This document shows, piece after piece, positions 7,336 to 20,428 of a stretch of DNA of 52,874 nucleotides. The stretch's first letter is position 1. Each line of letters begins with the position of its first letter. This DNA comes from Candidatus Tayloriibacteriota bacterium (GTDB lineage: Bacteria > Patescibacteriota > Minisyncoccia > Phycocordibacterales > CAIZLB01). The stretch lies in contig VEQN01000005.1 of NCBI GenBank assembly GCA_018883165.1, positions 1 through 52,874 of the forward strand, read 5' to 3'. The notes under the pieces were generated by a model that made no database searches, was not told where the DNA came from, and saw only the letters and a program-made list of their open reading frames with translations. Position numbers and translations under genes: made by a program.

Positions 7336-10300
7336 TCAAACCTTAAGATATACAAACATTTTATATATCTTAAAGAACCCTGGATACAAGAACGACGCAT
7401 CCTTGAGACTCATCCCTCCTCGATAGTTTTTATATGACTTTTCGATCTCTTTCACAATTGAATCTAAACTAACTTGTATAGATTTAGAATATGCTTTTGA
7501 ATTACTTATCGGATATGCATCAATCCTTCTGAGAATTGCATTTATTTTTAACACATACCTATCAGCAAACTTTTTAGTAACAATCCCCGATTGAATTCGT
7601 GTTCGCAGTGCACGAAGTTCTACTTTAATATCATTAATGGAATATTCTTCAACGGCAATATCTGAGTATGTAGATGTTGCAACTATTGGGATTGAAGCTG
7701 CATCGACCACACCATCACCCTCATAATCTTTTTCTAAAGTAATCGTTGTTGTTGCATTGTCATTAGTTATGTTAATCGTACTTACACTTTGCGGAGTTGT
7801 AGCATCTATATCAAAGATGTATGCCGGCTGACTGTATGACGACTTATACGTACCATCTCTAAAATCTACCCTATCAATCATAAATGATTCTGTTCCTAGG
7901 GACTTTGAAGAAAAGTTAATCTTTCTTGGTTTTACGGGTAATAGTATTATTTTTTCTGAATTTGTATTTTCATACGCTACCCCTTTCATATTACTCGAAT
8001 GCACATACCCTTCTTTCACTTGATAGTCTTCGACAACCCCAATATCTGTTTCCACCTTAACTTTTCCATCCCCCTGTATCTTCACTCTCCAATATGATGT
8101 AACTTCAAGAGGAGCATCTACCTGTTGATTGCTTGGAACTACCGTTACATATGGTGCCGCGGAAAACTTCAGGTCTCTGCCAAATACAATGTCATTTAGT
8201 ATCGTTAGTACAGGTTCTGTTGATGCAAGATTTACATGCTCAATTCTGTTCGGATGTATATTGTTGTATTTGAAAACATCAATCAATATTGTCCTACCAG
8301 CTCGCTTCGAGATATCACCTACAGGTACGACACCATCACCATTTTTTGTATACATTGAATTACGGCTCATTGCACAATATGCATCTGCCGAGACGTTCTG
8401 TTGAACCAGACCCACTCCAAGTGACAACTCCGCCTGCGGACCGCATTTTTCTATATACTCAATTCCATTTTGAGTAAGTACATTTGTACTCAGTATATGT
8501 GTAATTTTTCCAGATAAAGTATCACTAATCGAGTACCTAATATCTTTTACCTTGTCATATACAATTTTGTTACCGATAGCAGCAGTACGGACATCCACAT
8601 CTGAAAACGGAATTTTTCTATCTTTAAACACACCGGTTCTAAATATGAAATCTAACATCATATCTTTTGTACGCAGATGCACAGGGTCTTTGTTTTTGGT
8701 ATGTATTTCAATTCCGGAAGACATTTGATCTAAGGTTATTCTCACAAGTTCATTTACTGATTTAATATTCTTTGAGAACGACCTTGCTGTTGATTGTGTA
8801 AGAATCGCACCATGCAATATTGATTGCCCATCACCATGAAGTACTGATGATACAGATGAAAAAGACCCTTGCTCTGGAGTACCAATTAATACTACAGATT
8901 CGATAAGGTGCCCAAGACCCTCTGACTCTAAATATGATGCAAACTTTTTTGCAACAATACCACCGAAGCTATGACCGACAAGTATCACCTTACCAGTTTT
9001 TGATTTTAAAGCTTTTTCCTTAATCTCTTTAGTCCATATTTTCCTATTCATTAAAACTACTTCATCGGAAGAATATCGCCAGTCATACACTATCACACCC
9101 CAATCCTGTATCATTCTTCTGTTTTTTAACCCGACAAGATATTCTTCCATACCCTTGTACACATCAATATCTAAAAATCCAAGACCAATAGATGATCCAA
9201 TATTTGTTCTAGAGACCATATCTTTAGGATATATAGATTTAGATATAGGTTCTCCGCTCGTATTGAAATACAACTTCTTCACATCAGCATCTCTATTTGG
9301 TTCCCATAACTGATTCTCGAACATGTATCCCCTTGTATATAACCTACTACCCTGAAGACCAGGGAAGAAAAACATTGAGGAACAACATTTCTTAATGTTT
9401 GGCTTTTCGAGAAGCCAAGGCATAACATTAAGTGAACCATCCGCCGAGTCACCTACTCCTTGGATATTTTGAAGCGGAAATCTAGGGCCAGTACCACTAC
9501 CCCACCAATTGTCCCTAGCTTCAACAAATCCACCCTCTGCATATGTTGCGTATCCTATGTGCTCCTCGAAGATATTTCCTACAACAGTTGAAGACGCTGC
9601 ATATGCTTCGAATCCAATACGATTATTCAAAAAAGTATTTGCACTTAAGAAGTTCTCAGCATGTTCGAATGTTGAAATACCAGTTTTTAGTCTTGAGAAA
9701 CTATTGCCACTGAACGTTGTGTATACTTTGTTAAACACTTGTACACCAATTGAACTTGGTGAATCAACAAACTCTGAATTCTCAACAGTGACTACACCAT
9801 TTTCATACGATGACACAACCGCCACCGTCATGTTATTGCGGAATACTGTATCTGATATATACATATTCGAATACTTAAATGATTCAATTACAGATGTAGC
9901 AGTAATGTTGGTTAATGTCACATTTTGTACTGTAAGCTCAGAATGATTCCAAGATGAGATTAAAGCACCACTAGCGTTACAAGTATCAAATACGCTATTT
10001 GATATGATTATCTTTGAATTATCCCATCCATATATCTTTGGACAATCTCCATTTGCCTGTATACCAGATACAACCAAACTGCCACCCATTGTGTATATAC
10101 CGGAGAAAGAATGTCCTGACAGAATACGAGCGCTTGTTCCCACTATCTCCAACTCCCCATATACATATATAGATCCACTATTGAATTGTAACCCTTTCTC
10201 GCCAACTTGAATTACAAGTTTCAAACCCTTAGGTATTGTCAGGTTTCCATTAATCTCATGCGTTGATTGATATTTCCATACTTCATTCGAAGACAGAGTC

Positions 10301-10383
10301 CGATCACCAATCACAGATTCAGCGCTGATGTATGACGGTACAAGTATCCATGCGTACAGTGCAAAAAGAAAAACACATTTCAT
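7336..10383 (-). CDS. Secreted protein: parallel beta-helix domain plus LCAT/PGAP1-like alpha/beta hydrolase
   Basis: Signal peptide; N/S/G-rich beta-helix repeats ending in NWWG..GP; FFPGLQGSRLY, YDWR, nucleophile elbow GHSFGG, GTP..GS, GDGVVP, EH. Confidence 0.8.
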   Translation of the reverse strand: MKCVFLFALYAWILVPSYISAESVIGDRTLSSNEVWKYQSTHEINGNLTIPKGLKLVIQVGEKGLQFNSGSIYVYGELEIVGTSARILSGHSFSGIYTMGGSLVVSGIQANGDCPKIYGWDNSKIIISNSVFDTCNASGALISSWNHSELTVQNVTLTNITATSVIESFKYSNMYISDTVFRNNMTVAVVSSYENGVVTVENSEFVDSPSSIGVQVFNKVYTTFSGNSFSRLKTGISTFEHAENFLSANTFLNNRIGFEAYAASSTVVGNIFEEHIGYATYAEGGFVEARDNWWGSGTGPRFPLQNIQGVGDSADGSLNVMPWLLEKPNIKKCCSSMFFFPGLQGSRLYTRGYMFENQLWEPNRDADVKKLYFNTSGEPISKSIYPKDMVSRTNIGSSIGLGFLDIDVYKGMEEYLVGLKNRRMIQDWGVIVYDWRYSSDEVVLMNRKIWTKEIKEKALKSKTGKVILVGHSFGGIVAKKFASYLESEGLGHLIESVVLIGTPEQGSFSSVSSVLHGDGQSILHGAILTQSTARSFSKNIKSVNELVRITLDQMSSGIEIHTKNKDPVHLRTKDMMLDFIFRTGVFKDRKIPFSDVDVRTAAIGNKIVYDKVKDIRYSISDTLSGKITHILSTNVLTQNGIEYIEKCGPQAELSLGVGLVQQNVSADAYCAMSRNSMYTKNGDGVVPVGDISKRAGRTILIDVFKYNNIHPNRIEHVNLASTEPVLTILNDIVFGRDLKFSAAPYVTVVPSNQQVDAPLEVTSYWRVKIQGDGKVKVETDIGVVEDYQVKEGYVHSSNMKGVAYENTNSEKIILLPVKPRKINFSSKSLGTESFMIDRVDFRDGTYKSSYSQPAYIFDIDATTPQSVSTINITNDNATTTITLEKDYEGDGVVDAASIPIVATSTYSDIAVEEYSINDIKVELRALRTRIQSGIVTKKFADRYVLKINAILRRIDAYPISNSKAYSKSIQVSLDSIVKEIEKSYKNYRGGMSLKDASFLYPGFFKIYKMFVYLKV

Positions 10384-10428
10384 GTCCGTAGATTACATGA
10401 ATGAGATGAAAATGATTTTAAGAAAAAA

Positions 10429-10533
10429 TTAGATTATTGTTTGATACAAGCCTGTCGCTATCAAAACCATGAAACCGAAAATAAGGATTGCGAGAAATCC
10501 ACATATAAGTCTAAAAGCAGTTGTATCAAACAT
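10429..10533 (-). CDS. 34-aa single-TM small protein (MFDTTAFRLICGFLAILIFGFMVLIATGLYQTII)
   Basis: Below the ORF-track cutoff. TGtTACAAT extended -10 lies 6 nt before the ATG; one hydrophobic helix. Confidence 0.6.
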   Translation of the reverse strand: MFDTTAFRLICGFLAILIFGFMVLIATGLYQTII

Positions 10534-10548
10534 GAAATTATTGTAACA

Positions 10549-10583
10549 CAAAAAGCCCGTCTCTTTCGGGAGCGGGCTTTTTG
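10549..10583 (-). terminator. Intrinsic terminator after the S-layer-like gene
   Basis: caaaaagcccg...cgggctttttg. Confidence 0.88.
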
Positions 10584-10623
10584 CTGAATCAAGATCTAAC
10601 AGATCTGGACTTCGTTCAAGTTA

Positions 10624-12360
10624 TTACTTGATGAAGTTTACACCTGTTGGAGTCTTGTAATCATCCCAACCATATGTCTGTGTTACAGACACTGAACCAA
10701 CTGTCCATGCAACTGACTCAATGTATGCTGAGTAGATACCTGAAGTCAATCCTGTTGATGACGCAGTAGCTGTAACTGTTACAGGAACTGTTGTACCATC
10801 AGCGATGTTGTTGTCTGGGATTGTTGAAACAAGTACTGAAGCTGTTGTTGTAGCAGCGTAGTCAGATCGTGCGAACTTAACTACTACTGATGTGTTAGCA
10901 AGCTTTGTCATTGTTCCTCCAAGAGCTGTTACGTTCAATGGGAATCGAGCTGTTGCAGCTGTAGATGAACCCTGCTGGTTTGTACCATCGATTGTGATAG
11001 TAGGTGTTCCAGCGAGTGCGAATACAGGAGCAGCAGTGTAAACATACTGAGCAACGTTAGATACTGATGAGCCTGAAGCAGTAGCTGTTGTACCGTTTGG
11101 CTTTTCGTATACTACGTTTCCAACAACCACACTAGCGTATGAGCCAGATGTTGTGTTTGATGGGAAGTCAGCCTTGATTGTGTATGTTACGTTTGTGTCG
11201 TTTCCAGGAACTACTGCACCTGCTGTTGAGTCGAGGTTATCGAATGCAACTGTTGATGCGTAAGACTTAGACTTCAACAATGTTGAACCCTGGTAGAGGT
11301 ACAATGTTGTAGGAGCTGTACCAGAAGTTGTTGTTGTAGCGTACACAGTCATGAGCTTTGAATCACCTGAAGTTGACTTCAAGTTGAATGTACCAAGAGT
11401 AACATTCTGAAGTACATCAGAACCATTTACTCGGTAGTTCATTGATCGGATAGGATTTGAAGCACCTGAGAGTGTCAAAGTAGATGTACCTGGTTTCTTG
11501 AATGTATGTGTTCGAGTGTAACCTGAACCTGATACATCGTAGAAGCTTGATACGCCGTTACCTGAAACCGCTCGTACAGATGATGATCCGTAACCCTGAA
11601 CTGTAACTGTTCGGTCGTTGTCAAGTCCGTTTGTACTGAATGATACAGTTAGAACTTTTGTAACGTCCTTAGCAACTACAAAGTTAAGACCTGAAAGTCG
11701 GTAGTAATATACCTGGTTCTGGTCCTTAGTAAATGTAGACATTGTTACAGGAATTGTAGCAATTACGTTTGATCCATCCCAAACCTTGATTGTGTTGATC
11801 AAAGTTGCTGGGTTTTCTGATGATGAACCATCAGATACTGCAACTTTAAGGTCAAGAGTCTGAACTGAAACATCAGCGATTCGAGCCTTGAACTCAATTC
11901 CGTATACAGGAACATCGTTCTGAGTCTTCACGTTTGAGTTATCAGCAGGTGTTGATGCAAGTCGAGTATCGAGTGTACCTTCAACTCCTGATGTTGTAAC
12001 TGTAGTTGTAGTGTTTGTAGTTGTTGTGTTTGTTGTAACAACTGCATCAGCTGCAACAGCAGCTCGTGTCATAGGACCAAAGAATCCTGTTTGTGGAAGA
12101 CCCTTTGTAGCCTGGTATGCTCGAACTGCAGTTCTTGTAAGAGGACCAAATGATCCCTTCGCAACGCCAGCTGGCATTGTAAGGAGACCCTTTGATTCGA
12201 GGAATGACTGTAGAGCTACTACGTCAGCACCTCGTGAACCTACCTTAAGGTTCATTGTGAATGTGTAAGCTGTAGACACTGTCTGTGCTGAAGCTGCTAC
12301 TGGAGCAACAACTGAAAGCGCAAGAGCAAGTGTAAGAACAGCTGCGAAATATTTCTTCAT
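10624..12360 (-). CDS. Major surface / S-layer-like protein with an N-terminal peptidoglycan-binding domain
   Basis: Signal peptide; LKVGSRGADVVALQSFL...FGPLTRTAVRAYQ...TGFFGPMTR (PG_binding_1); Thr/Ser/Val-rich beta-sandwich body; codon use resembles the ribosomal protein genes. Confidence 0.8.
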   Translation of the reverse strand: MKKYFAAVLTLALALSVVAPVAASAQTVSTAYTFTMNLKVGSRGADVVALQSFLESKGLLTMPAGVAKGSFGPLTRTAVRAYQATKGLPQTGFFGPMTRAAVAADAVVTTNTTTTNTTTTVTTSGVEGTLDTRLASTPADNSNVKTQNDVPVYGIEFKARIADVSVQTLDLKVAVSDGSSSENPATLINTIKVWDGSNVIATIPVTMSTFTKDQNQVYYYRLSGLNFVVAKDVTKVLTVSFSTNGLDNDRTVTVQGYGSSSVRAVSGNGVSSFYDVSGSGYTRTHTFKKPGTSTLTLSGASNPIRSMNYRVNGSDVLQNVTLGTFNLKSTSGDSKLMTVYATTTTSGTAPTTLYLYQGSTLLKSKSYASTVAFDNLDSTAGAVVPGNDTNVTYTIKADFPSNTTSGSYASVVVGNVVYEKPNGTTATASGSSVSNVAQYVYTAAPVFALAGTPTITIDGTNQQGSSTAATARFPLNVTALGGTMTKLANTSVVVKFARSDYAATTTASVLVSTIPDNNIADGTTVPVTVTATASSTGLTSGIYSAYIESVAWTVGSVSVTQTYGWDDYKTPTGVNFIK

Positions 12361-12869
12361 ATGATAATTAAAATTTGTTTAAAGGTTTTGCTTCACCACA
12401 TTAATTGATAAACAATTTATAATGTGTGGTTACACACAACCTTCGGGTTAAACTAACCTGGCGAACCCGTAGAGAAACTCGAAGTAATTCCGAGTACCTG
12501 TACGGGTTCGCCGTTTGTAATAACTAACTATAATGACTCCATTTGTCGTGAAGAGTCATACCACTTCCCAACCTCATTTCCATCAACATCTTTTTATTAA
12601 TTTTCATTAACGTAAAGTTGAGAACGAAATCGACACGAAGTTTGGAAAAGTTGTCGAATGTAATTTGTATTTCTGAGTACTGAATATCTGTCGTTCTGAT
12701 GTTCAGAAATTGAACTAACTATGGGTTTTTCAATGGTCAGATTGTTACTGGGTAGCGCTCCTATATATATGTAACTTTCAGGAACATATAATAGTGCCTA
12801 TAAATACTGTGCTACATACCATGACGGTATATAGCCCCATATATTACAGAAAAACACCCCCTTAGTCAA
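12361..12869 (-). promoter_or_regulatory. Promoter and ~470-nt structured 5' leader of the surface-protein gene
   Basis: TTGACT (12869-12864), 17 nt, TAATAT (12846-12841). Several hairpins follow, including a perfect 12-bp stem at 12460-12471 / 12501-12512. Confidence 0.6.
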
Positions 12870-12914
12870 TGAAAGTCAACCACTCGAGTTTTTGGAAAGA
12901 TGGCTTAAAACAAA

Positions 12915-14569
12915 GATATAAAAGACATCAAAAGGACAAAATTATTTCGCAAGCGCGTATCTTGACCATCTCCTTTCCCCTGTTTTAGTTAAAACTCCTT
13001 GTTCTACCAACGCCAGAAGCTCTCTTTGTATGGTTTTTTCGCTACATCCTTTAACAACACCTTCCAGATCTTTTATGGAAAGTTCGCCTTTTGCGGCGAT
13101 AGTATTAATAATAAGTTCTTGTCTACCTGACTTTGCAAATGGTGCAGATTTACTCTCTTCCTTACCCGGTATCGTAGATGACAATCCGTGTAAATCCTCG
13201 AGAGTTTTAGAAGTTGCTAATCTTTGTCTGAATACAGCATTAGTAGGATGGAATGAAGATCTCGATGTTCTTGTTAAAGAAGCCTCCTTTGGATTTGATA
13301 CAGAAAGAGTCTCGATTATTGGTTTGGGTTTCTCCAACACAACCTTTTCATCAACTATAGGTTTAGGTGCCTGAATGAACATCTCAGACTCAAAGTCAGA
13401 CATTTTAAGCGAAGGTTGTGGTGATATCTTATGAGACAATTCTTCTACTTCAAACATAAAAGATTTAATTTGTCCGAGGAGGATGTCAGAGTTAGATTCT
13501 GAAATGAGTTTAAGTGCATGTGCCAGTTCTACCAAATTTACCAAGAACAATGACTTAGACAGAATAACATCTCTGTCTTTTATAGAGAGTGTTCCCGAGT
13601 TGCACAAACTTGAGATTGCAATATCGGACATATCCAAAGCAGTACTCCTCAACTTCATTCGTATCTCTTTGTTTTCCTCAATATGCGCAGTTACTAGACA
13701 GGTGGCCTTAGTGATTTGAGACACCTTCTTACAGAGGTAGGACACCTTGTTGTCTTTTATAAAAGACAACAACTTTTCTGTCCCTTGTACCTCTCCAACC
13801 TGCTCTGAAACTTGATTGTCTTTTTGCATAATTTTTAGTGACTTTTAATAGTGACCCCATTATATATAAGACAACTTTAAAAGCAACTTAGTGTACGAAT
13901 GTTTGCGTGATAAAATATGTACATGGCAAAACGTGAAAAAAAGAAATCTCCTGATACGGACATTAAACAATCTTCTAAGACAAGTTATTTAAAAGAAAGC
14001 ACATGGAAAAGTGTATGGGGAATCTCCCTGTTTATACTATCAATCTTCTTCCTCTTTGCAGGGTTTGGAGGTGGTGGTTTAGTGGGTACAAAAGTACACG
14101 ATATCCTGTCTGATCTCTTAGGATATGGATACTACCTCATCCCTGCAATTCTTTTAATACTCTCCCTTTCTTTCTTTGGGGATCAGGAAAGGAGTTTCCC
14201 ACCGTCAAAGATTGCAGGTACCGTACTCTTCATAGTATCTGGTCTTGGTTTATTTGAGCTTACCAGCGAGACAAGTGGAGGTATCGTTGGGGCCCTCATA
14301 TCAAAACCCCTCCTTCAACTCTTTGACTATGCAACCAGCGTAATTACACTCGTCGGGTTACTACTCATTTCAATCATTGTGATTTACGACGCAGCTCTAC
14401 GCAAAGAGCATGTAATGTTCTGGAGACTCATTCACGGTAAAAAAGATGAAGAAGGAATGGATGAAAAAGTATCTAATAATAAGGATAAAATTAAAGGACA
14501 ACCAATGTCTGATATAAAAGACATGGATGAAGAAGAGATTGATGAGAAAAAAGCAGCTTCTGTCCTTGA
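12915..14569. repeat. Cluster of TATAAAAGACA-like boxes; full palindromic sites TGTC-N10-GACA
   Basis: Perfect 26-bp palindrome at 13747-13772; second full site at 14505-14524; identical 14-mer gatataaaagacat at 12915 and 14511; further half-sites in both orientations. Confidence 0.7.
12942..13829 (-). CDS. Helical-bundle plus C-terminal winged-HTH (DeoR-like HTH) DNA-binding protein
   Basis: C-terminal RQELIINTI...LSIKDL....CSEKTIQRELLALVEQGVL.KTGERRWSRY; helical N-terminal domain; low-complexity linker. Confidence 0.8.
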   Translation of the reverse strand: MQKDNQVSEQVGEVQGTEKLLSFIKDNKVSYLCKKVSQITKATCLVTAHIEENKEIRMKLRSTALDMSDIAISSLCNSGTLSIKDRDVILSKSLFLVNLVELAHALKLISESNSDILLGQIKSFMFEVEELSHKISPQPSLKMSDFESEMFIQAPKPIVDEKVVLEKPKPIIETLSVSNPKEASLTRTSRSSFHPTNAVFRQRLATSKTLEDLHGLSSTIPGKEESKSAPFAKSGRQELIINTIAAKGELSIKDLEGVVKGCSEKTIQRELLALVEQGVLTKTGERRWSRYALAK

Positions 14570-16241
14570 AACCATAAAGGCCAAGCTTAAGGCTGAGACC
14601 AAACCTGAACCTATTGAAAAAGAACCTAAGGTGGCTGTGGATAACAAAGCTGAAAATGACAAAGATGATGTCATCCAAGTATCAAGAAAATCTCTACTCC
14701 TTGGTAAAGCATTCGTTCCTCCCCCGCTTTCCCTTCTTGAAGGCGATAGTGGTAAACCAGGAGTTGGTGACATTAAAGCGAACGCAAATGTAATTAAAAG
14801 AACTCTTCAGAACTTCGGTATAGATGTAGAGATGGATGAGGTCTCAATTGGACCATCTGTCACACGGTATGCATTGAAGCCAGCAGAAGGTGTAAAACTT
14901 TCTAAAATCCTTGGCCTTCAGAACAACCTCTCACTTGCTCTTGCGGCACACCCAATTCGTATTGAAGCACCAATCCCTGGTAAGTCACTTGTAGGTATTG
15001 AAATTCCAAACACAGTGAAGACAAAAGTAGGTCTAGGTACACTTCTTGCACAAGATGAATATCAGAAATCTGAGACACCACTCATGATAGCTCTCGGTAA
15101 AGGAATCTCTGGTAAATCATATTTCGGTAACCTAACAAAACTTCCACACCTTCTCATCGCAGGTACAACTGGATCTGGTAAATCAATTACCATTCATGCA
15201 ATCATCACTTCCCTCCTCTACAGAAACTCAGCTGACAATCTCCGATTCATCATGATTGACCCTAAACGAGTGGAGCTCACTCAGTACAACAAGATCCCTC
15301 ACCTTCTCACCCCAGTAATCACAGATGCAAAGAAAGCAATTCTTTCACTCAAGTGGGCAGCAAAAGAAATGGATAGACGATATAACATTCTTGAAAAACA
15401 TTCGGTTCGAGATATTAGCTCTTACCATAAAAACATCCTAACGCCATTACTTGAGAAAAAGAAAAAAGGTGAAATTAAGGATGATGAAATGATCGACCCG
15501 ATGCCATACATTGTTATCGTAATTGATGAGTTGGCAGATATCATGCAAACATACCCTCGAGAACTTGAAGCGGGTATTGTTCGACTTGCGCAAATGAGTC
15601 GAGCTGTGGGTATCCATCTCATCCTCTCAACACAAAGACCATCGGTAAACGTAATCACTGGTCTCATTAAGGCAAACGTACCGTCTCGAATCGCTCTCCA
15701 GGTAGCATCACAAATTGACTCTAGAACAATCCTTGATATGCGAGGAGCTGAGGAGCTTCTTGGTGCCGGAGACATGCTCTATCTCTCAGGCGACATGGCA
15801 ACTCCGCAACGAATCCAGTCAGCATTCATTAGTGAGGCTGAAATGAAACGAGTGGTACAGTACCTAATCGATAATGCAGAGGGTCTTCCATCAGAAATTA
15901 CTCTCACAGGTGAAAGTGTTACTAACGTAACACCTGACCCGATATTTAGCTCTAGCACAGAAGGTGGCCTTGGAGACGACGAAGATGTTGATGATGATTT
16001 GTATGAAGAAGCAAAACAAATCGTACTCGAGGCTGGAAAAGCTTCAACATCATATATTCAGAGGAAACTACGAGTTGGATATGCACGAGCTGCTAGGCTT
16101 ATGGATATCCTCGAAGACAAGGGTGTCATAGGTCCTGCTGACGGTGCTAAACCACGAGAAGTACTCATCGGTCGCGAAGGTGGATCTTCAAATGACGAGG
16201 AATATTCAGAAGAAGCAGAGGAGGAAGAGACAAATTTATAA
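13923..16241 (+). CDS. ftsK: DNA translocase FtsK/SpoIIIE
   Basis: 4-TM N-terminus; PHLLIAGTTGSGKS, IDPK, IVIDELAD, TQRPS; gamma domain STSYIQRKLRVGYARAARLMD. Start ATG 13923 preferred (alternative 13917). Confidence 0.98.
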   Translation: MAKREKKKSPDTDIKQSSKTSYLKESTWKSVWGISLFILSIFFLFAGFGGGGLVGTKVHDILSDLLGYGYYLIPAILLILSLSFFGDQERSFPPSKIAGTVLFIVSGLGLFELTSETSGGIVGALISKPLLQLFDYATSVITLVGLLLISIIVIYDAALRKEHVMFWRLIHGKKDEEGMDEKVSNNKDKIKGQPMSDIKDMDEEEIDEKKAASVLETIKAKLKAETKPEPIEKEPKVAVDNKAENDKDDVIQVSRKSLLLGKAFVPPPLSLLEGDSGKPGVGDIKANANVIKRTLQNFGIDVEMDEVSIGPSVTRYALKPAEGVKLSKILGLQNNLSLALAAHPIRIEAPIPGKSLVGIEIPNTVKTKVGLGTLLAQDEYQKSETPLMIALGKGISGKSYFGNLTKLPHLLIAGTTGSGKSITIHAIITSLLYRNSADNLRFIMIDPKRVELTQYNKIPHLLTPVITDAKKAILSLKWAAKEMDRRYNILEKHSVRDISSYHKNILTPLLEKKKKGEIKDDEMIDPMPYIVIVIDELADIMQTYPRELEAGIVRLAQMSRAVGIHLILSTQRPSVNVITGLIKANVPSRIALQVASQIDSRTILDMRGAEELLGAGDMLYLSGDMATPQRIQSAFISEAEMKRVVQYLIDNAEGLPSEITLTGESVTNVTPDPIFSSSTEGGLGDDEDVDDDLYEEAKQIVLEAGKASTSYIQRKLRVGYARAARLMDILEDKGVIGPADGAKPREVLIGREGGSSNDEEYSEEAEEEETNL

Positions 16242-16272
16242 TTCATTTACATCCCCTTAATATCGATACCCT

Positions 16273-16632
16273 ATGCTAAAGCCATACGAAGACGGAAAAC
16301 TGATACTGAAAACACTGATGGTTGGAATCTTCGTATTATGTTTGATTGGATATGGCATATTCCAGGCAAAAAAGATCGTGGAGGGTCCTGAACTAAGCCT
16401 GTATTCCCCTACCCCTGGTGGGACAGTAACAGACAACAGGCTTACCGTCTCTGGAAAAGCCTCAAACATCTCAGCCATCTGGCTTAATGACAGACCAATT
16501 GTGACAGACGAATCGGGAGTTTTCAATGAGAAACTAATGGTATATCCAGGGTATAATATAATCACACTCAAGGCTGAGGATAAGTTCGGGTCAAGAGTTG
16601 AGAAAAAAATAGAAGTCGTATATAAGCAATAA
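16273..16632 (+). CDS. Membrane-anchored single Ig-like domain protein
   Basis: N-terminal TM, then P.L...P...V.G....LN....G.F.....PGYN.I...AED pattern. Confidence 0.7.
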   Translation: MLKPYEDGKLILKTLMVGIFVLCLIGYGIFQAKKIVEGPELSLYSPTPGGTVTDNRLTVSGKASNISAIWLNDRPIVTDESGVFNEKLMVYPGYNIITLKAEDKFGSRVEKKIEVVYKQ

Positions 16633-16641
16633 TTAATTTAC

Positions 16642-17760
16642 ATGGCAAAAAAGAACGCACCAAAGAAAGATAAGAAAGTATCTAAGGAGGTTACCGAAGA
16701 TACAACTCTGGATACAGAAACAGAAGTAGCAACTGAAAATGAGGAAGAGGTTTCTTCAAAGAAATCTAAATCAGCTCCATCGGAAAGTGAGATCAAGGAT
16801 ACACTTGCACAGATTAAGACTAAGTTTGGTGATGACGCAATCATGAAGCTTGGTGATAAACCAAAAGTAAACGTAAATGTCATTCCAACCGGATCAATTG
16901 GTCTAGATGCAGCACTCGGTGTTGGTGGTATGCCTCGAGGCAGAATCATTGAAATATTTGGGCCAGAGTCTTCAGGTAAGACGACACTCGCCCTCCATGT
17001 TGTGGCAGAAGCGCAGAAGATGAGTGGAATTTGTGCGTATATTGATGCCGAGCATGCGATGGATCCAGAGTATGCAAAACGACTTGGTGTAAAGATTGAT
17101 CAGCTTCTCATCTCTCAACCAGATACAGGTGAACAAGCTCTCGAGATTGTAGAAAGCTTAGTACGATCTGGAAAAATTGATGTCATCGTAATTGACTCCG
17201 TTGCAGCCCTTACCCCTAAAGATGAAATCGAAGGTGACATGGGTGCACACCATGTTGGAAAACAAGCAAGGCTCATGTCTCAAGCACTTCGAAAACTTAC
17301 AAGTATCGTTTCAAAGACAAAGACCGTAGTAATTTTCATCAACCAAATACGAATGCAAATTGGAGTCATGTTTGGAAATCCAGAGACTACACCAGGTGGT
17401 AAAGCACTAAAATTCTACACTTCTGTAAGACTGGATATTCGAAGAATTGCTCAGATAAAGAAAGGTGAAGAAATCATGGGAGGACGAGTGCGAGTGAAAG
17501 TTGTTAAAAACAAAGTAGCAGCTCCATTTAAGCAAACTGAATTCGATTTGATGTACAACGAAGGTATTTCAAAAGAAGGTGAGATGATTGCTCTTGGGGA
17601 AAAGATGGGCATAATTTCAAAAAGTGGTACAAGCTACTCATACGTAGAAGAGAAGCTTGGTCGAGGATATGATGCAACAAGGCAATATCTACGAGAAAAT
17701 ACAGTAACAGCAAACAAGATACTTAAAGAAATTCGAGCGAAGCTGAAGGAACAAGAATAG
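16642..17760 (+). CDS. recA: Recombinase RecA with a charged N-terminal extension
   Basis: [41 protein letters not shown]. Confidence 0.99.
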
Positions 17761-17767
17761 AAGGCGT

Positions 17768-17796
17768 AAAACACCCGCAGAGAGCGGGTGTTTTTT
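17768..17796 (+). terminator. Intrinsic terminator after recA
   Basis: aaaacacccgc-agaga-gcgggtgtttttt. Confidence 0.9.
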
Positions 17797-17875
17797 GTAA
17801 TATATACGACTAGACTTCTCCCCTGCTTTGGACTAGAATGCCTGTATTAATTAGCCATTTAGGAATATACACCCA

Positions 17876-18445
17876 ATGCTAGAATATAACGAAATTACAG
17901 TACGAAAGTACATTGTATTTGAAGGAGAGCCATATGAAGTACTTTCTTCACATGTGTTTCGAAAGCAGATGCGAAAGCCAGTAAACGCTACTAAGCTTAA
18001 AAATCTCATGAACGGTCGAGTGGTTGAGCACTCATTCGGTGCAACTGACAAAGCTGAGGAAGCAGATATCGATGAACGCAAAGTAAAGTTTTTATATGCA
18101 AACAGAGGTGAATGGTGGTTTTGCGAAGAGAATGATCCAAGTAAACGATTTAAACTTGAGGAATCCCTCATCGGAACAGCAGCTAAGTTCATGAAAGCGA
18201 ACACTCTTGTTGATGTACTTTCTTTTGAAGACAACATTTTCAGTGTAAAGCTTCCAATCAAGGTTGAACTTAAAGTAACTGACGCTCCCCCAGCAGTTAA
18301 AGGTGACACAGCGAAAGGTGGTAACAAAGTCATCACACTTGAGACTGGTGCAACAATCAACGCTCCAATTTTCGTTGCTGAAGGTGATGTAGTACGAATC
18401 AACACTGAAACTGGAGAATATGTAGAGCGAGTAAGTAACAAGTAA
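17876..18445 (+). CDS. efp: Elongation factor P
   Basis: PPAVKGDTA..GNK...LETG..I.APIFV..GD....NTETGEYVER. Confidence 0.96.
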   Translation: MLEYNEITVRKYIVFEGEPYEVLSSHVFRKQMRKPVNATKLKNLMNGRVVEHSFGATDKAEEADIDERKVKFLYANRGEWWFCEENDPSKRFKLEESLIGTAAKFMKANTLVDVLSFEDNIFSVKLPIKVELKVTDAPPAVKGDTAKGGNKVITLETGATINAPIFVAEGDVVRINTETGEYVERVSNK

Positions 18446-18460
18446 TATCTATATATGAAT

Positions 18461-18490
18461 ACAGCGGCACCTAGTTTGGTGCCGCTGTTT
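18461..18490. terminator. Terminator between convergent efp and the TrmB-like gene
   Basis: acagcggcacc-tagttt-ggtgccgctgt. Confidence 0.8.
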
Positions 18491-18508
18491 CGTTATTGAT
18501 GCAAAATA

Positions 18509-19249
18509 TTACTTTGCCAATTGCCACAAAAACTTAAAGTTATTTCTAAATGACTCAACAATCGCTGGGTTACGCATGATAAATGCGATCGGTTCTTTAG
18601 CACTCCATACACCCATTACAACCATAGTATCTGAGACATTAAAACAACTAGGGTTAAAATATTCTTTAGGCAGTCGCTTCATATTGTATTTTGATGCAAA
18701 AGGTCTGTCCTTTTTTATAATTTGCATCAAATCATCATCAGCAATCATTGAGATATAAGCACCTTTTTTGAATATACCCTTGTCTAGATCTGCAAAAAAG
18801 TCTCTTATGCTTTTCCTCTTACCATAATACGCAGAGTATGTGACCACATTCACGATTTCCCCTTTCTTCAATTCCGACGCCATAATTTCATATGCTCGTT
18901 TGAATCCAGATACACCTTGGTACACATTAACTTCATTTCTTTCATTTTCTGGAACCGGAAGCATCTTAATATCTTTCAATAGTTCCTCTAAAGCCTTAGT
19001 CTGTTCTTTTGATTCTTCAATGAGCGAGTCGGGCATTTCCGCTTGGTAATATTTAATATTGTTTTTTACCTGGTATGAGACCAAACCCTTCTTTATTAAA
19101 GATTCAAGACTTGCATACACACTTGAACTAGATATGCCCGATGTAGAGATTATCTTTCCCGTCTTCTGTCTGCCTTGCAAAAGCAAAGTATTGTATACCC
19201 TAATTTCATTATCGTTTAAACCTATTTTTTTAAGTATTTCTAAATTCAT
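18509..19249 (-). CDS. TrmB-family transcriptional regulator
   Basis: LKKIGLNDNEIRVY..LL...VYASLESLIKKGLV and V.VYQG..G pattern; start reassigned to ATG 19249. Confidence 0.85.
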   Translation of the reverse strand: MNLEILKKIGLNDNEIRVYNTLLLQGRQKTGKIISTSGISSSSVYASLESLIKKGLVSYQVKNNIKYYQAEMPDSLIEESKEQTKALEELLKDIKMLPVPENERNEVNVYQGVSGFKRAYEIMASELKKGEIVNVVTYSAYYGKRKSIRDFFADLDKGIFKKGAYISMIADDDLMQIIKKDRPFASKYNMKRLPKEYFNPSCFNVSDTMVVMGVWSAKEPIAFIMRNPAIVESFRNNFKFLWQLAK

Positions 19250-19345
19250 ACATATTACTCTCCAATGTGAGAGAGTTTGTGCACATAATAGTAATACATG
19301 TATACATGATTGTAAATAGCTATTACCCAGCTGTTTAAAACCAAT

Positions 19346-20428
19346 ATGAACAAGATAAAATATATAATTATAGCCACAATACTCGTACTCATCGCGGTGA
19401 GTACGATGCACACAAAGGAAACCAAAGAAGCAAGACTTGGTGCCGTATTCCACAGCACCGGTTTCGCATCTTTTGTGGGTGAAGAATCAAGAAACGGATT
19501 ATTACTAGCACTCAAGGATACAGGCTTCCCTGCCGAACGAGTCGTTATTGAAGATGGTAAATCTGATGTGACAGGATCAGTAAACGCTGTGAATAAATTG
19601 GTACATGTAGATAAGGTACAGGCGATAATTGGACCGGAGTGGACCGAGTTTGGTGCAGCAGTTGCACCAATCGCAAGTACCAACAAAATACCGATTATTT
19701 CCCCGTGGGTGGTTGCTGACTCTGATTTCGTGAAGCCACCGTATTTTTGGTCTATGACGCCATCGGATTTGGGTGAGCACAAAGCACTTGCACAATATAT
19801 GAAAAAGAAATCGGTAAAAAAAGTTGCGGTGATTAAAACCGTGAATACCTGGTCGAACATAAATGCAAAGCAAATAACAACAGAGCTGGCAAATCTTGGT
19901 ATCGAATACATAGAAATTAGCACAAATCCAGATCAGACAGATTTTAGAACCGAGATACTTAAGGTTAAGGAGTACAAGCCAGACTATGCATATTCAGCTA
20001 TATCAGATGACATGGGTCATGCAGCATTATGCAACCAAGTACTTGCACAGATAGGCGACATAATGATTGCTACACATAGCGCACGTGCCAAAGCAAAATC
20101 AACACTTGATAATCTTGGGCGATTTAAGAGCAAAGTTGTCTTTGCAGAGATGCATTCTGGCAACAAGCAAGATGAGTTTAATGAGAAATACAAAGCAATA
20201 TATGGTAAGTACCCTTCAGGCCCAAGCGCGGCGGCCACATATGATGCTGCAGTAATACTAATCAAAGGCCTGGCGAGTAACTTGAGTACAGTAGAATCAA
20301 TTTCTCAAGCTAATTACGAAGGTTACTCCGGCTACATACGATTTGATTCTAAAGGAAAACTTCCACTAAGAAATGCTTCTGTGTTTACATTTGATGAATC
20401 AGGGAAACAAGTTCCTCTTTTTAACTAA
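19346..20428 (+). CDS. LivJ-like (branched-chain amino acid type) substrate-binding protein
   Basis: TG.ASFVGE...G, IEDGKS, VQAIIGP, TDFRTEILK, AA.YDA, YEGYSG.I.FD. Confidence 0.88.
   Translation: MNKIKYIIIATILVLIAVSTMHTKETKEARLGAVFHSTGFASFVGEESRNGLLLALKDTGFPAERVVIEDGKSDVTGSVNAVNKLVHVDKVQAIIGPEWTEFGAAVAPIASTNKIPIISPWVVADSDFVKPPYFWSMTPSDLGEHKALAQYMKKKSVKKVAVIKTVNTWSNINAKQITTELANLGIEYIEISTNPDQTDFRTEILKVKEYKPDYAYSAISDDMGHAALCNQVLAQIGDIMIATHSARAKAKSTLDNLGRFKSKVVFAEMHSGNKQDEFNEKYKAIYGKYPSGPSAAATYDAAVILIKGLASNLSTVESISQANYEGYSGYIRFDSKGKLPLRNASVFTFDESGKQVPLFN

Follow-up and report, generated by a model that had tools for sequence, protein, structure and literature searches.

We analyzed a window of 52,874 nucleotides from a Candidatus Tayloriibacteriota bacterium (contig C19 of a 748,599-base, 30-contig genome; 40% G+C), in which a 9-bp box with the consensus T-A-W-A-R-G-A-C-A is concentrated in and around a gene for a winged helix-turn-helix (wHTH) protein and the divergent ftsK gene beside it. 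The wHTH gene (12942-13829, minus strand, as given in the open reading frame (ORF) list) encodes a protein of 295 amino acids (aa), and ftsK (13917-16241, plus strand) encodes 4TM, alpha, motor and gamma domains. The enrichment of the box at this locus is far beyond chance, and the boxes are kept at the DNA level in relatives. We consider it probable, from the sequence evidence assembled here, that they are operator half-sites of the adjacent wHTH protein and that this protein is an autoregulated transcription factor with a small regulon.

The box and its conservation at the wHTH-ftsK locus

The box is not over-represented genome-wide, but its matches are concentrated at the wHTH-ftsK locus. 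The degenerate form TA[AT]A[AG]GACA has 38 matches in the genome compared with 22-35 in ten third-order Markov simulations, and seven of the 38 fall in the 1.6-kb stretch 12919-14515. The 11-mer TATAAAAGACA has eight copies on the two strands of the genome, five of them inside 12917-14523; ATAAAAGACA has nine, likewise counted on both strands, with five at the locus; and the spaced pattern TGTC-N10-GACA has ten, two of which are at the locus. The genome was also scanned with a position weight matrix trained on 29 orthologous loci, the window's own locus being excluded, with a cut-off of 11 bits. This returned 178 matches of at least 11 bits, 12 of them in 12850-14650. Among 2331 segments of 1.8 kb the wHTH locus was the richest with these 12 sites, and the best segment outside contig C19 had six. 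An earlier sequence-only reading of this DNA had proposed a matrix scan for enrichment at the locus, and its expectation is borne out.

Inside the wHTH gene lies a perfect 26-bp palindrome (13747-13772) that encodes LLSFIKDNK and consists of a box on the minus strand (13751-13759) and an inverted copy on the plus strand (13760-13768), which score 16.1 matrix bits each. A promoter/terminator scan flagged the palindrome as a terminator, but it has just three G-C pairs and we rejected this assignment. The same coding sequence carries an exact match to the box TATAAAAGACA (13574-13582, minus strand, encoding LSIKDRD; 15.7 bits), a variant box TATCGGACA (13622-13630, plus strand; 11.3 bits) and a box over the start codon, ATGCAAAAAGACAAT (13817-13825, minus strand, encoding MQKDN; 12.5 bits). 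Two boxes on the plus strand stand straight after the wHTH stop codon and upstream of the next gene's promoter (12919-12927 and 12930-12938; 15.5 and 13.9 bits). In ftsK, the matrix finds a cluster in the stretch that encodes the linker, at 14492-14500 (plus), 14506-14514 (minus), 14515-14523 (plus) and 14561-14569 (minus). One of these, the left arm (14506) of the palindrome in ftsK, was added by the matrix scan with 12.1 bits; the scan also adds weaker sites at 13430 and 13974. Neighboring boxes are irregularly spaced and occur in both orientations.

The sequence-only reading had described the palindrome of the wHTH gene, the stretch 14505-14524 (ATGTCTGATATAAAAGACAT, encoding MSDIKDM in the ftsK linker) and a 14-mer, GATATAAAAGACAT, identical at 12915 and 14511, and all three descriptions are exact. 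Its list of 11 related half-sites stands in part: seven score at least 11 bits (12930, 13574, 13622, 13817, 13865, 14492 and 14561), two are weak at 7.3 bits (13779 and 13954), and two, at 13393 and 13470, have no score of 6.5 bits or more.

Relatives were drawn from the same order (41 genomes; 30 loci fetched, 99 kb) and from a class-level set of 29 loci; these organisms are kin, so that counts across loci are not independent. The wHTH protein was matched in 39 of the 41 same-order relatives. The two without a match have assembly gaps at the locus and are not clean losses (G026 also lacks an ftsK match, and in G029 ftsK is cut by the contig start), which makes them uninformative as a control for loss. 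The divergent arrangement of ftsK and the wHTH gene, a synteny that the sequence-only reading had suggested checking, is present in 27 of the 30 fetched loci, and the other three end at contig edges. The motif itself is kept as well: the 30 orthologous loci hold 145 strict boxes, where about five are predicted from the density of 0.051 per kb in the window's own genome. Their positions recur from locus to locus. Boxes follow the wHTH stop codon (19 of 30 loci with the strict pattern), fall within the gene itself, frequently at aa 10-30 and across its start codon, occupy the intergenic region, and appear again at aa 190-235 of the ftsK linker (12 loci). In the class-level set, TATCGGACA is among the widest-shared 9-mers (22 copies in 15 of 29 loci).

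The boxes in coding sequence are maintained at the DNA level. When synonymous codons were shuffled with each protein sequence kept, the three boxes of the window's own wHTH gene (0.14 expected) were equalled in none of 2000 resamplings, and the two boxes within codons 1-260 of its ftsK compared with 0.17 expected (P 0.006). Across 29 orthologues the wHTH coding sequences hold 53 boxes compared with 8.0 +/- 2.7 after resampling, and the partial orthologous ftsK sequences hold 16 compared with 2.4 +/- 1.5. Furthermore, in the ftsK linker the T that precedes AAAGGACA, which is the first base of TAAAGGACA, is the third base of a codon for N, I, S or D. A base that is kept while the residue changes, together with the excess over resampling, places the signal in the DNA, as the sequence-only reading had claimed. 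The beginning of the wHTH protein shows the same effect from the other side: M1, K3 and D26, each of them encoded by a box, are near-invariant although the N-terminus around them varies. The apparent protein conservation of M-(E/Q)-K-D at the N-terminus is probably DNA constraint. The N-terminal M-(E/Q)-K-D of the family coincides, at 13817-13829, with the box over the start codon.

Predicted promoters, the wHTH protein and the reading of the cluster

All promoters in this analysis are predictions. The predicted promoter of the wHTH gene (13859-13886, minus strand) has a -10 element TATAAT at 13859-13864 and a -35 element TTGCTT at 13881-13886, with a 16-nt spacer. The box TATAAGACA (13865-13873) abuts this -10, and 12 bp from this box a further repeat that resembles it, TAAAAGCAAC, covers the -35. 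In the relatives there is a conserved intergenic block, CATTATATATAAGACAAnnTTAAAAGCAACTT, which on the wHTH strand reads TTGCTT-16 nt-TATAAT with a box against the -10; TATATAAG is found in 21 and TATAAGACA in 18 of the 30 orthologous intergenic regions. Up to four tandem TGTCYTTTA boxes also stand between the wHTH promoter and the start codon in relatives. An operator-like box that overlaps the predicted core promoter of the protein's own gene, as is characteristic of autoregulated repressors, is present in 18-21 of 30 loci.

We propose that the wHTH protein binds the box abutting its own -10 and the box-like repeat over the -35, and that it would also bind the tandem boxes in its own 5' untranslated region (UTR), at the start codon and in the early coding region. 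Binding at the promoter, the 5' UTR and the early gene would together shut off wHTH transcription. The boxes past the stop codon and those about 600 bp into ftsK may serve as auxiliary operators, reached via looping or through several DNA-binding heads per oligomer. Boxes that are irregularly spaced and lie in both orientations would fit the latter arrangement, with several winged-helix heads carried on long linkers by one helical hub. The small regulon of the protein would extend to the xth / cca / tRNA-Gly locus and, within the genus, to the Mur-ligase gene and the stretch after dnaA, all described below.

The predicted structure of the protein (AlphaFold2, mean predicted local distance difference test score 77) consists of a confident four-helix bundle (aa 27-135), a low-confidence linker (about aa 140-230) and a DeoR-like winged helix (aa 235-293). 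The Pfam model HTH_DeoR (PF08220) matches aa 236-283 but barely passes (E 2.1e-4, 21.4 bits compared with a cut-off of 21), and precomputed PF08220 matches exist for part of the homologues too. Pfam gave no DeoRC sensor domain at E <=0.1, and the HTH is C-terminal, unlike the order in the DeoR family; ParB N-terminal (CTPase), Rep and receiver domains were likewise not found by Pfam, and NCBIfam reported nothing above family cut-offs. Foldseek places the bundle closest to 2gsc, 2rld and 8ub7 (target-normalised template modeling scores 0.71-0.83, E 0.013-0.078) and the C-terminus with generic ArsR-, MecI- or AspA-like winged helices; taken together, the protein atlas and Foldseek return generic four-helix-bundle and winged-helix matches only. 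Oligomer prediction for four copies of aa 20-140 returned a score of 0.01 with "no answer" and bears neither way. We found 627 homologues at E <=0.001, from Parcubacteria / Paceibacteria-type sources and named only "hypothetical" or "DeoR family", and in a sample of 201 genomes of the class the family is present in 77. Among 50 aligned homologues, the recognition helix SEKTIQREL and the wing GERRWSRY vary little or not at all; the constancy of the helix matches that of the box, which is unchanged across the order. The protein most likely represents a single-copy, uncharacterised regulator family. A full-text literature search, at the level of listings and abstracts, found no paper on the protein or the box, in keeping with the sequence-only reading, which had suggested that the system may be undescribed. 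We also considered LexA/SOS boxes, a candidate that we rejected: the protein has no S24 peptidase domain and its HTH is C-terminal.

Several observations weigh against autoregulation by the wHTH protein. The link between protein and box is drawn from adjacency and co-conservation, and the spacing between neighboring boxes is irregular. The -35 of the protein's own promoter matches the consensus at three of six positions, and for this reason a consensus scan missed the promoter. Many boxes lie in coding DNA far from predicted promoters (about +600 in ftsK, in cca and in the Mur-ligase gene), which is unusual for a plain repressor. The densest cluster is at xth-cca and not at the wHTH locus in two of four judgeable relatives. 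Lastly, three distant genomes that carry the wHTH family have no cluster of strict boxes, which means that the motif is subject to drift or that the link does not reach beyond the order and its near relatives; the strict pattern, derived within the order, becomes weaker in the family's more distant members. Three genomes that lack the family have no cluster of at least three strict boxes either, so that this presence/absence control (three genomes with and three without the family, none with strict clusters) does not discriminate.

The distant carriers, along with the co-occurrence of the boxes with DnaA boxes, would also agree with a different explanation, in which another factor (some other regulator, or DnaA at non-canonical sites) reads the boxes and the wHTH gene is merely a target. 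We think this very improbable. The densest cluster surrounds the wHTH gene in this genome and in two of the four judgeable relatives, an invariant G of the box takes the place of a C in the DnaA box, and neither the recognition helix nor the box changes across the order.

The sequence-only reading had seen in the cluster a chromosome segregation or organisation module. The wHTH protein would, in that case, load on the cluster and mark or fold the ftsK region in a centromere-like manner, with transcription being secondary. The sites are under selection in coding DNA, as are parS, matS and ram; the perfect palindrome is in the protein's own gene, as parS is in spo0J; there are few clusters per genome; and ftsK is syntenic in 27 of 30 loci. 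The position on the chromosome is suitable as well. The cumulative GC skew of G039 reaches its minimum at 123 kb, where dnaA also lies (121.8 kb); the xth-cca cluster is 25 kb to one side of this minimum and the wHTH-ftsK locus 67 kb to the other. The wHTH gene lies 61-80 kb from dnaA on the same contig in five relatives (G005, G016, G011, G008 and G039). The wHTH locus is therefore origin-proximal, which answers the question of its place relative to origin and terminus that the sequence-only reading had raised; within the window the GC skew shows no switch. Against such a module stand the box that abuts the protein's own -10 and the tandem boxes in its 5' UTR. Canonical ParB is already present in 37 of 41 relatives, including this genome (PF02195 on contigs C12 and C8), and no nucleoside triphosphatase partner gene or parA-like neighbor was found at the wHTH locus. 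A comparison with parS gives mixed signs: there is a palindrome in the protein's own gene and the position is origin-proximal, but most sites are single half-sites and several lie over predicted promoters. Each of five relatives examined has additional clusters elsewhere, some over promoter-like hexamers. In the class-level set ftsK is adjacent in 13 of 29 loci; the adjacency is lost in the other 16, while the wHTH gene and the promoter downstream of it persist, and the most constant neighbor across the class is not ftsK but the signal-peptide ORF downstream of the wHTH gene. Given these observations, we regard a centromere-like role as distinctly unlikely. The Rep/iteron type, which the sequence-only reading had also named, does not fit the irregular spacing in both orientations, a protein without a Rep domain, or a locus that is chromosomal and syntenic across the order.

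The remaining promoters of the locus belong to its two neighbors. The predicted ftsK promoter (13908-13925, plus strand) has an extended -10, TGATAAAAT, at 13908-13916, which ends 7 nt before a second ATG at 13923 (MAKREKK). The layout is the same in relatives, and GATAAAAT directly precedes the ATG in 8 of 30 loci. The short distance from the extended -10 to the second ATG suggests that the ftsK mRNA is leaderless. An internal leaderless FtsK isoform starting at MSDIKDM was considered and rejected because its second ATG is not conserved in relatives. After ftsK, recA begins at 16642.

Downstream of the wHTH gene lies the gene for a secreted PG_binding_1 protein (10624-12360, minus strand; PF01471, E 3.5e-12), which we call the surface-protein gene. 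A strong promoter-like site faces it from just past the wHTH stop codon (12841-12869, minus strand; TTGACT-17-TAATAT with TG just before the -10), and in orthologous loci the site is kept as TTGACT...TGTAATAT. Between this promoter and the gene there is a conserved leader of about 480 nt (window 12361-12869, minus strand). Conserved blocks of the leader are found across genera: a CCGTCATGGTAT hairpin, GACCATTGAAAA, CGACAACTTTTCC...CGTGTCGAT and GTGGTATGA; GACCATTGAAAA resembles a boxA element. Rfam gave no match to the leader at E <=1, and a scan of 10000-20000 gave none better than E 0.06. The surface-protein gene is adjoined by a gene for a 1015-aa secreted protein (7336-10383, minus strand) with beta-helix and LCAT / alpha-beta-hydrolase-like regions.

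Further box loci and their DnaA boxes

Across the whole genomes of five relatives TAWARGACA is as frequent as a reversed-pattern control, yet its matches cluster at the wHTH gene and at a few other loci. A second locus, xth / cca / tRNA-Gly, is common to six genomes of five genera (contig C1 of this genome, G005, G039, G025, G017 and G027). Its order is a gene for a Xer-type recombinase, xth (exonuclease III), a spacer, the converging cca (the gene for the CCA-adding enzyme), tRNA-Arg and tRNA-Gly, followed by a run of DnaA-type boxes with a wHTH box, a yraN-like UPF0102 gene and tRNA-Pro. The cca gene carries boxes within its coding sequence. In the xth-cca spacer, a conserved TGTCCTTTACAT sets a -35-like TTTACA inside a box, and at this second locus hexamers resembling a -35 or a -10 are overlapped by boxes. 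The spacer measures 300-500 nt (about 400-800 on contig C1 of this genome, L071), begins with boxes and a DnaA box, has a terminator-like hairpin on the xth strand and no ORF, and folds better than shuffled sequences (z -2.9); it may encode an undescribed RNA. Rfam found nothing in the spacer and only tRNAs in the six second-locus stretches. A 6S RNA model has no match in this genome, where the RNase P RNA lies elsewhere (C27, 91876-92208). The possibility that the xth-cca locus marks a dif site was dismissed, as it lies 25-42 kb from dnaA and not at the terminus.

Other boxes are found within the genus. Five matrix sites at 31665-31882 on contig C6 of this genome (L072, 1886-3457), including the palindrome-like CTGTCCTATATAAAGGACAG, lie inside a Mur-ligase gene, and the orthologous Mur-ligase gene of G005 (L061) holds three boxes. 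Boxes directly follow the dnaA stop codon, and in this genome and three others of the genus (L041, L043 and L044) a box fused to the sequence TTATNCACA stands at the start of the dnaA-dnaN spacer. Boxes of any kind lie in this spacer in no more than 7 of 30 loci, with a density of 0.86 per kb compared with 0.39 per kb elsewhere in those loci. In this genome dnaA is split over two contig ends (C21, 1-497, and C30, 2-823), and the dnaA-dnaN spacer (C30, 824-1151) has wHTH boxes at 837 and 859, which form an everted pair without a G+C-rich stem, and DnaA boxes at 897 and 1084. A box inside dnaA, at about aa 403-411, was set aside as probably a by-product of a conserved IGQ peptide.

The wHTH boxes are frequently accompanied by DnaA boxes. 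This genome has 14 perfect TTATCCACA DnaA boxes (0.019 per kb), of which five have a wHTH box at a distance of no more than 225 bp. Perfect DnaA boxes occur in 22 of the 30 order-level wHTH loci (23 boxes per 99 kb, 0.23 per kb) and in 26 of the 29 class-level loci, where TGTGGATAA is the widest-shared 9-mer. In the window, the perfect DnaA box TGTGGATAA lies in the ftsK linker (14636-14644, plus strand, encoding xVDN), 121 bp from the linker boxes. Nine other loci have a perfect DnaA box inside ftsK: in seven it is in the linker (aa 178-258) and oriented as here, and in the remaining two it is near the FtsK N-terminus (aa 20-27) in the opposite orientation. A sense DnaA box occurs within 600 nt past the wHTH stop codon in 39 of 59 loci (order and class together, with G025 counted twice), and in all 39 a hexamer within one mismatch of TATAAT follows 24-43 nt later. 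The consensus is TTATCCACA-N8-TTTGCA-N17-TATAAT. By its layout, this element is a second predicted promoter of the surface-protein gene, its -35 closely preceded by a DnaA box. No copy of the element stands past the stop codon in this genome, which has the DnaA box of the ftsK linker instead. At the second locus, one perfect DnaA box flanked by 2-5 wHTH boxes stands at the xth stop codon in six of six genomes. The run TTATACACA / ATATCCACT / TTATCCACA after tRNA-Gly begins inside a wHTH box in G000, G005 and G017, and degenerate forms of this run are present in G039, G025 and G027. A composite AAAAC-TGTGGATAA-CT-nAGTGGATAT-GTGTA-TAAAAGACA is kept after tRNA-Gly in this genome (C1, 2635-2669; L071) and in L062, L068, L064 and L070; in the composite as written a wHTH box overlaps the last DnaA-type box, and it lies 25-42 kb from dnaA in three relatives.

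Since wHTH boxes stand beside or over consensus DnaA boxes, the proposed regulon is probably read together with DnaA, which would occupy its own boxes and so couple the regulon to replication or growth. The most interesting remaining reading goes further and takes the composites as elements that control DnaA. In E. coli, datA and DARS titrate, inactivate or reactivate the initiator DnaA. The composites would similarly modulate DnaA by titrating, inactivating or reactivating it, or would gate access to oriC, with the wHTH protein as an architectural cofactor. Such a role would account for the post-tRNA-Gly composite of DnaA-type boxes with its overlapping wHTH box, for the perfect DnaA box among 2-5 wHTH boxes at the xth stop codon in all six genomes, for the DnaA boxes of the ftsK linker, which adjoin wHTH boxes without promoter-like hexamers, for the fused TTATNCACA box that opens the dnaA-dnaN spacer in the genus, and for the placement of these loci 25-80 kb from dnaA. 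However, the commonest layout, in all 39 loci with a sense box past the stop codon, is that of an ordinary DnaA-regulated promoter, boxes in the dnaA-dnaN spacer are restricted to few loci at about twice the local density, and most composites hold one DnaA box, unlike the clustered boxes of datA and DARS. We therefore hold direct control of DnaA to be unlikely. A related proposal, which we put forward tentatively and with more doubt than conviction, is that DnaA has in the wHTH protein a lineage-specific partner or antagonist, which would act through composites at four kinds of origin-proximal loci: its own locus with ftsK and the surface-protein gene, the xth-cca spacer, the stretch after tRNA-Gly and, in some genera, the start of oriC. 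If true, this would be a previously unknown circuit of the ultra-small bacteria of the candidate phyla radiation (CPR) that couples the initiation of replication to division through ftsK, to wall synthesis through the Mur ligase and to the output of envelope protein.

Relation to known systems

To our knowledge, next to nothing has been established on how CPR/Patescibacteria, few of which have been cultured, regulate their genes or control their cell cycle, and we know of no cell-cycle regulator in CPR bacteria. The system described here provides a testable unit, with a 9-bp box, a candidate binder in 77 of 201 sampled genomes of the class and a small putative regulon that takes in ftsK, the Mur ligase, a major secreted protein that binds the wall, and sites beside DnaA boxes. 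The system is, moreover, a plain example of regulatory DNA in coding sequence: boxes appear to fix M-E/Q-K-D and short FtsK-linker peptides, which calls for caution when conservation in such proteins is read as constraint on the protein.

Autoregulation with distant operators has well-known counterparts in E. coli, where lac O2 lies in lacZ, gal OI in galE, and DeoR uses three operators over about 880 bp. The wHTH system resembles these repressors in the operator at its own promoter, in distant auxiliary sites in neighboring genes and in a DeoR-type DNA-binding domain. It differs in that the HTH is C-terminal without DeoRC, in having at least 12 irregular half-sites in both orientations, in the sites within its own coding sequence and start codon, and in a layout that is kept across the order. 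In B. subtilis, a parS palindrome lies inside spo0J. The resemblance to ParB/parS is in the palindrome within the gene of the putative binding protein, the origin-proximal position and the sites in coding DNA, whereas here there is no ParB N-terminal domain, ParB has a separate gene, there is no parA-like neighbor and boxes lie over promoters. CtrA in Caulobacter, Spo0A in B. subtilis and MtrA in mycobacteria bind beside or over DnaA boxes, and IHF and Fis have sites at datA and DARS in E. coli. Like the targets of CtrA, Spo0A and MtrA, the wHTH boxes stand beside or over DnaA boxes at conserved origin-proximal loci, with a division gene among the putative targets; unlike those regulators, the wHTH protein has no receiver domain, its fold is unrelated, and boxes at oriC are confined to the 7 loci of 30 mentioned above.

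Two further comparisons concern the architecture of the protein. The bundle (aa 27-135) superposes on bAvd / "S23 ribosomal protein" bundles, yet identity is 7-13% with no match at E <=0.001, and the bAvd / S23-like proteins themselves carry no winged helix. The bAvd-type proteins assemble as pentamers. Csa3 has a sensor/oligomerisation domain first and the winged helix last, as the wHTH protein does, and there is a weak NCBIfam match to the HTH part of Csa3 (E 0.0011); the score is 18.4 bits compared with a cut-off of 60.2, and the wHTH protein has neither a CARF fold nor a CRISPR context. The proposed system is of a known type, in which a winged-helix regulator controls its own gene through several operators. 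Its unusual features are the domain order of the protein, the order-wide putative operators in the protein's own coding sequence and start codon and in the FtsK linker, and the systematic pairing of the boxes with DnaA boxes.

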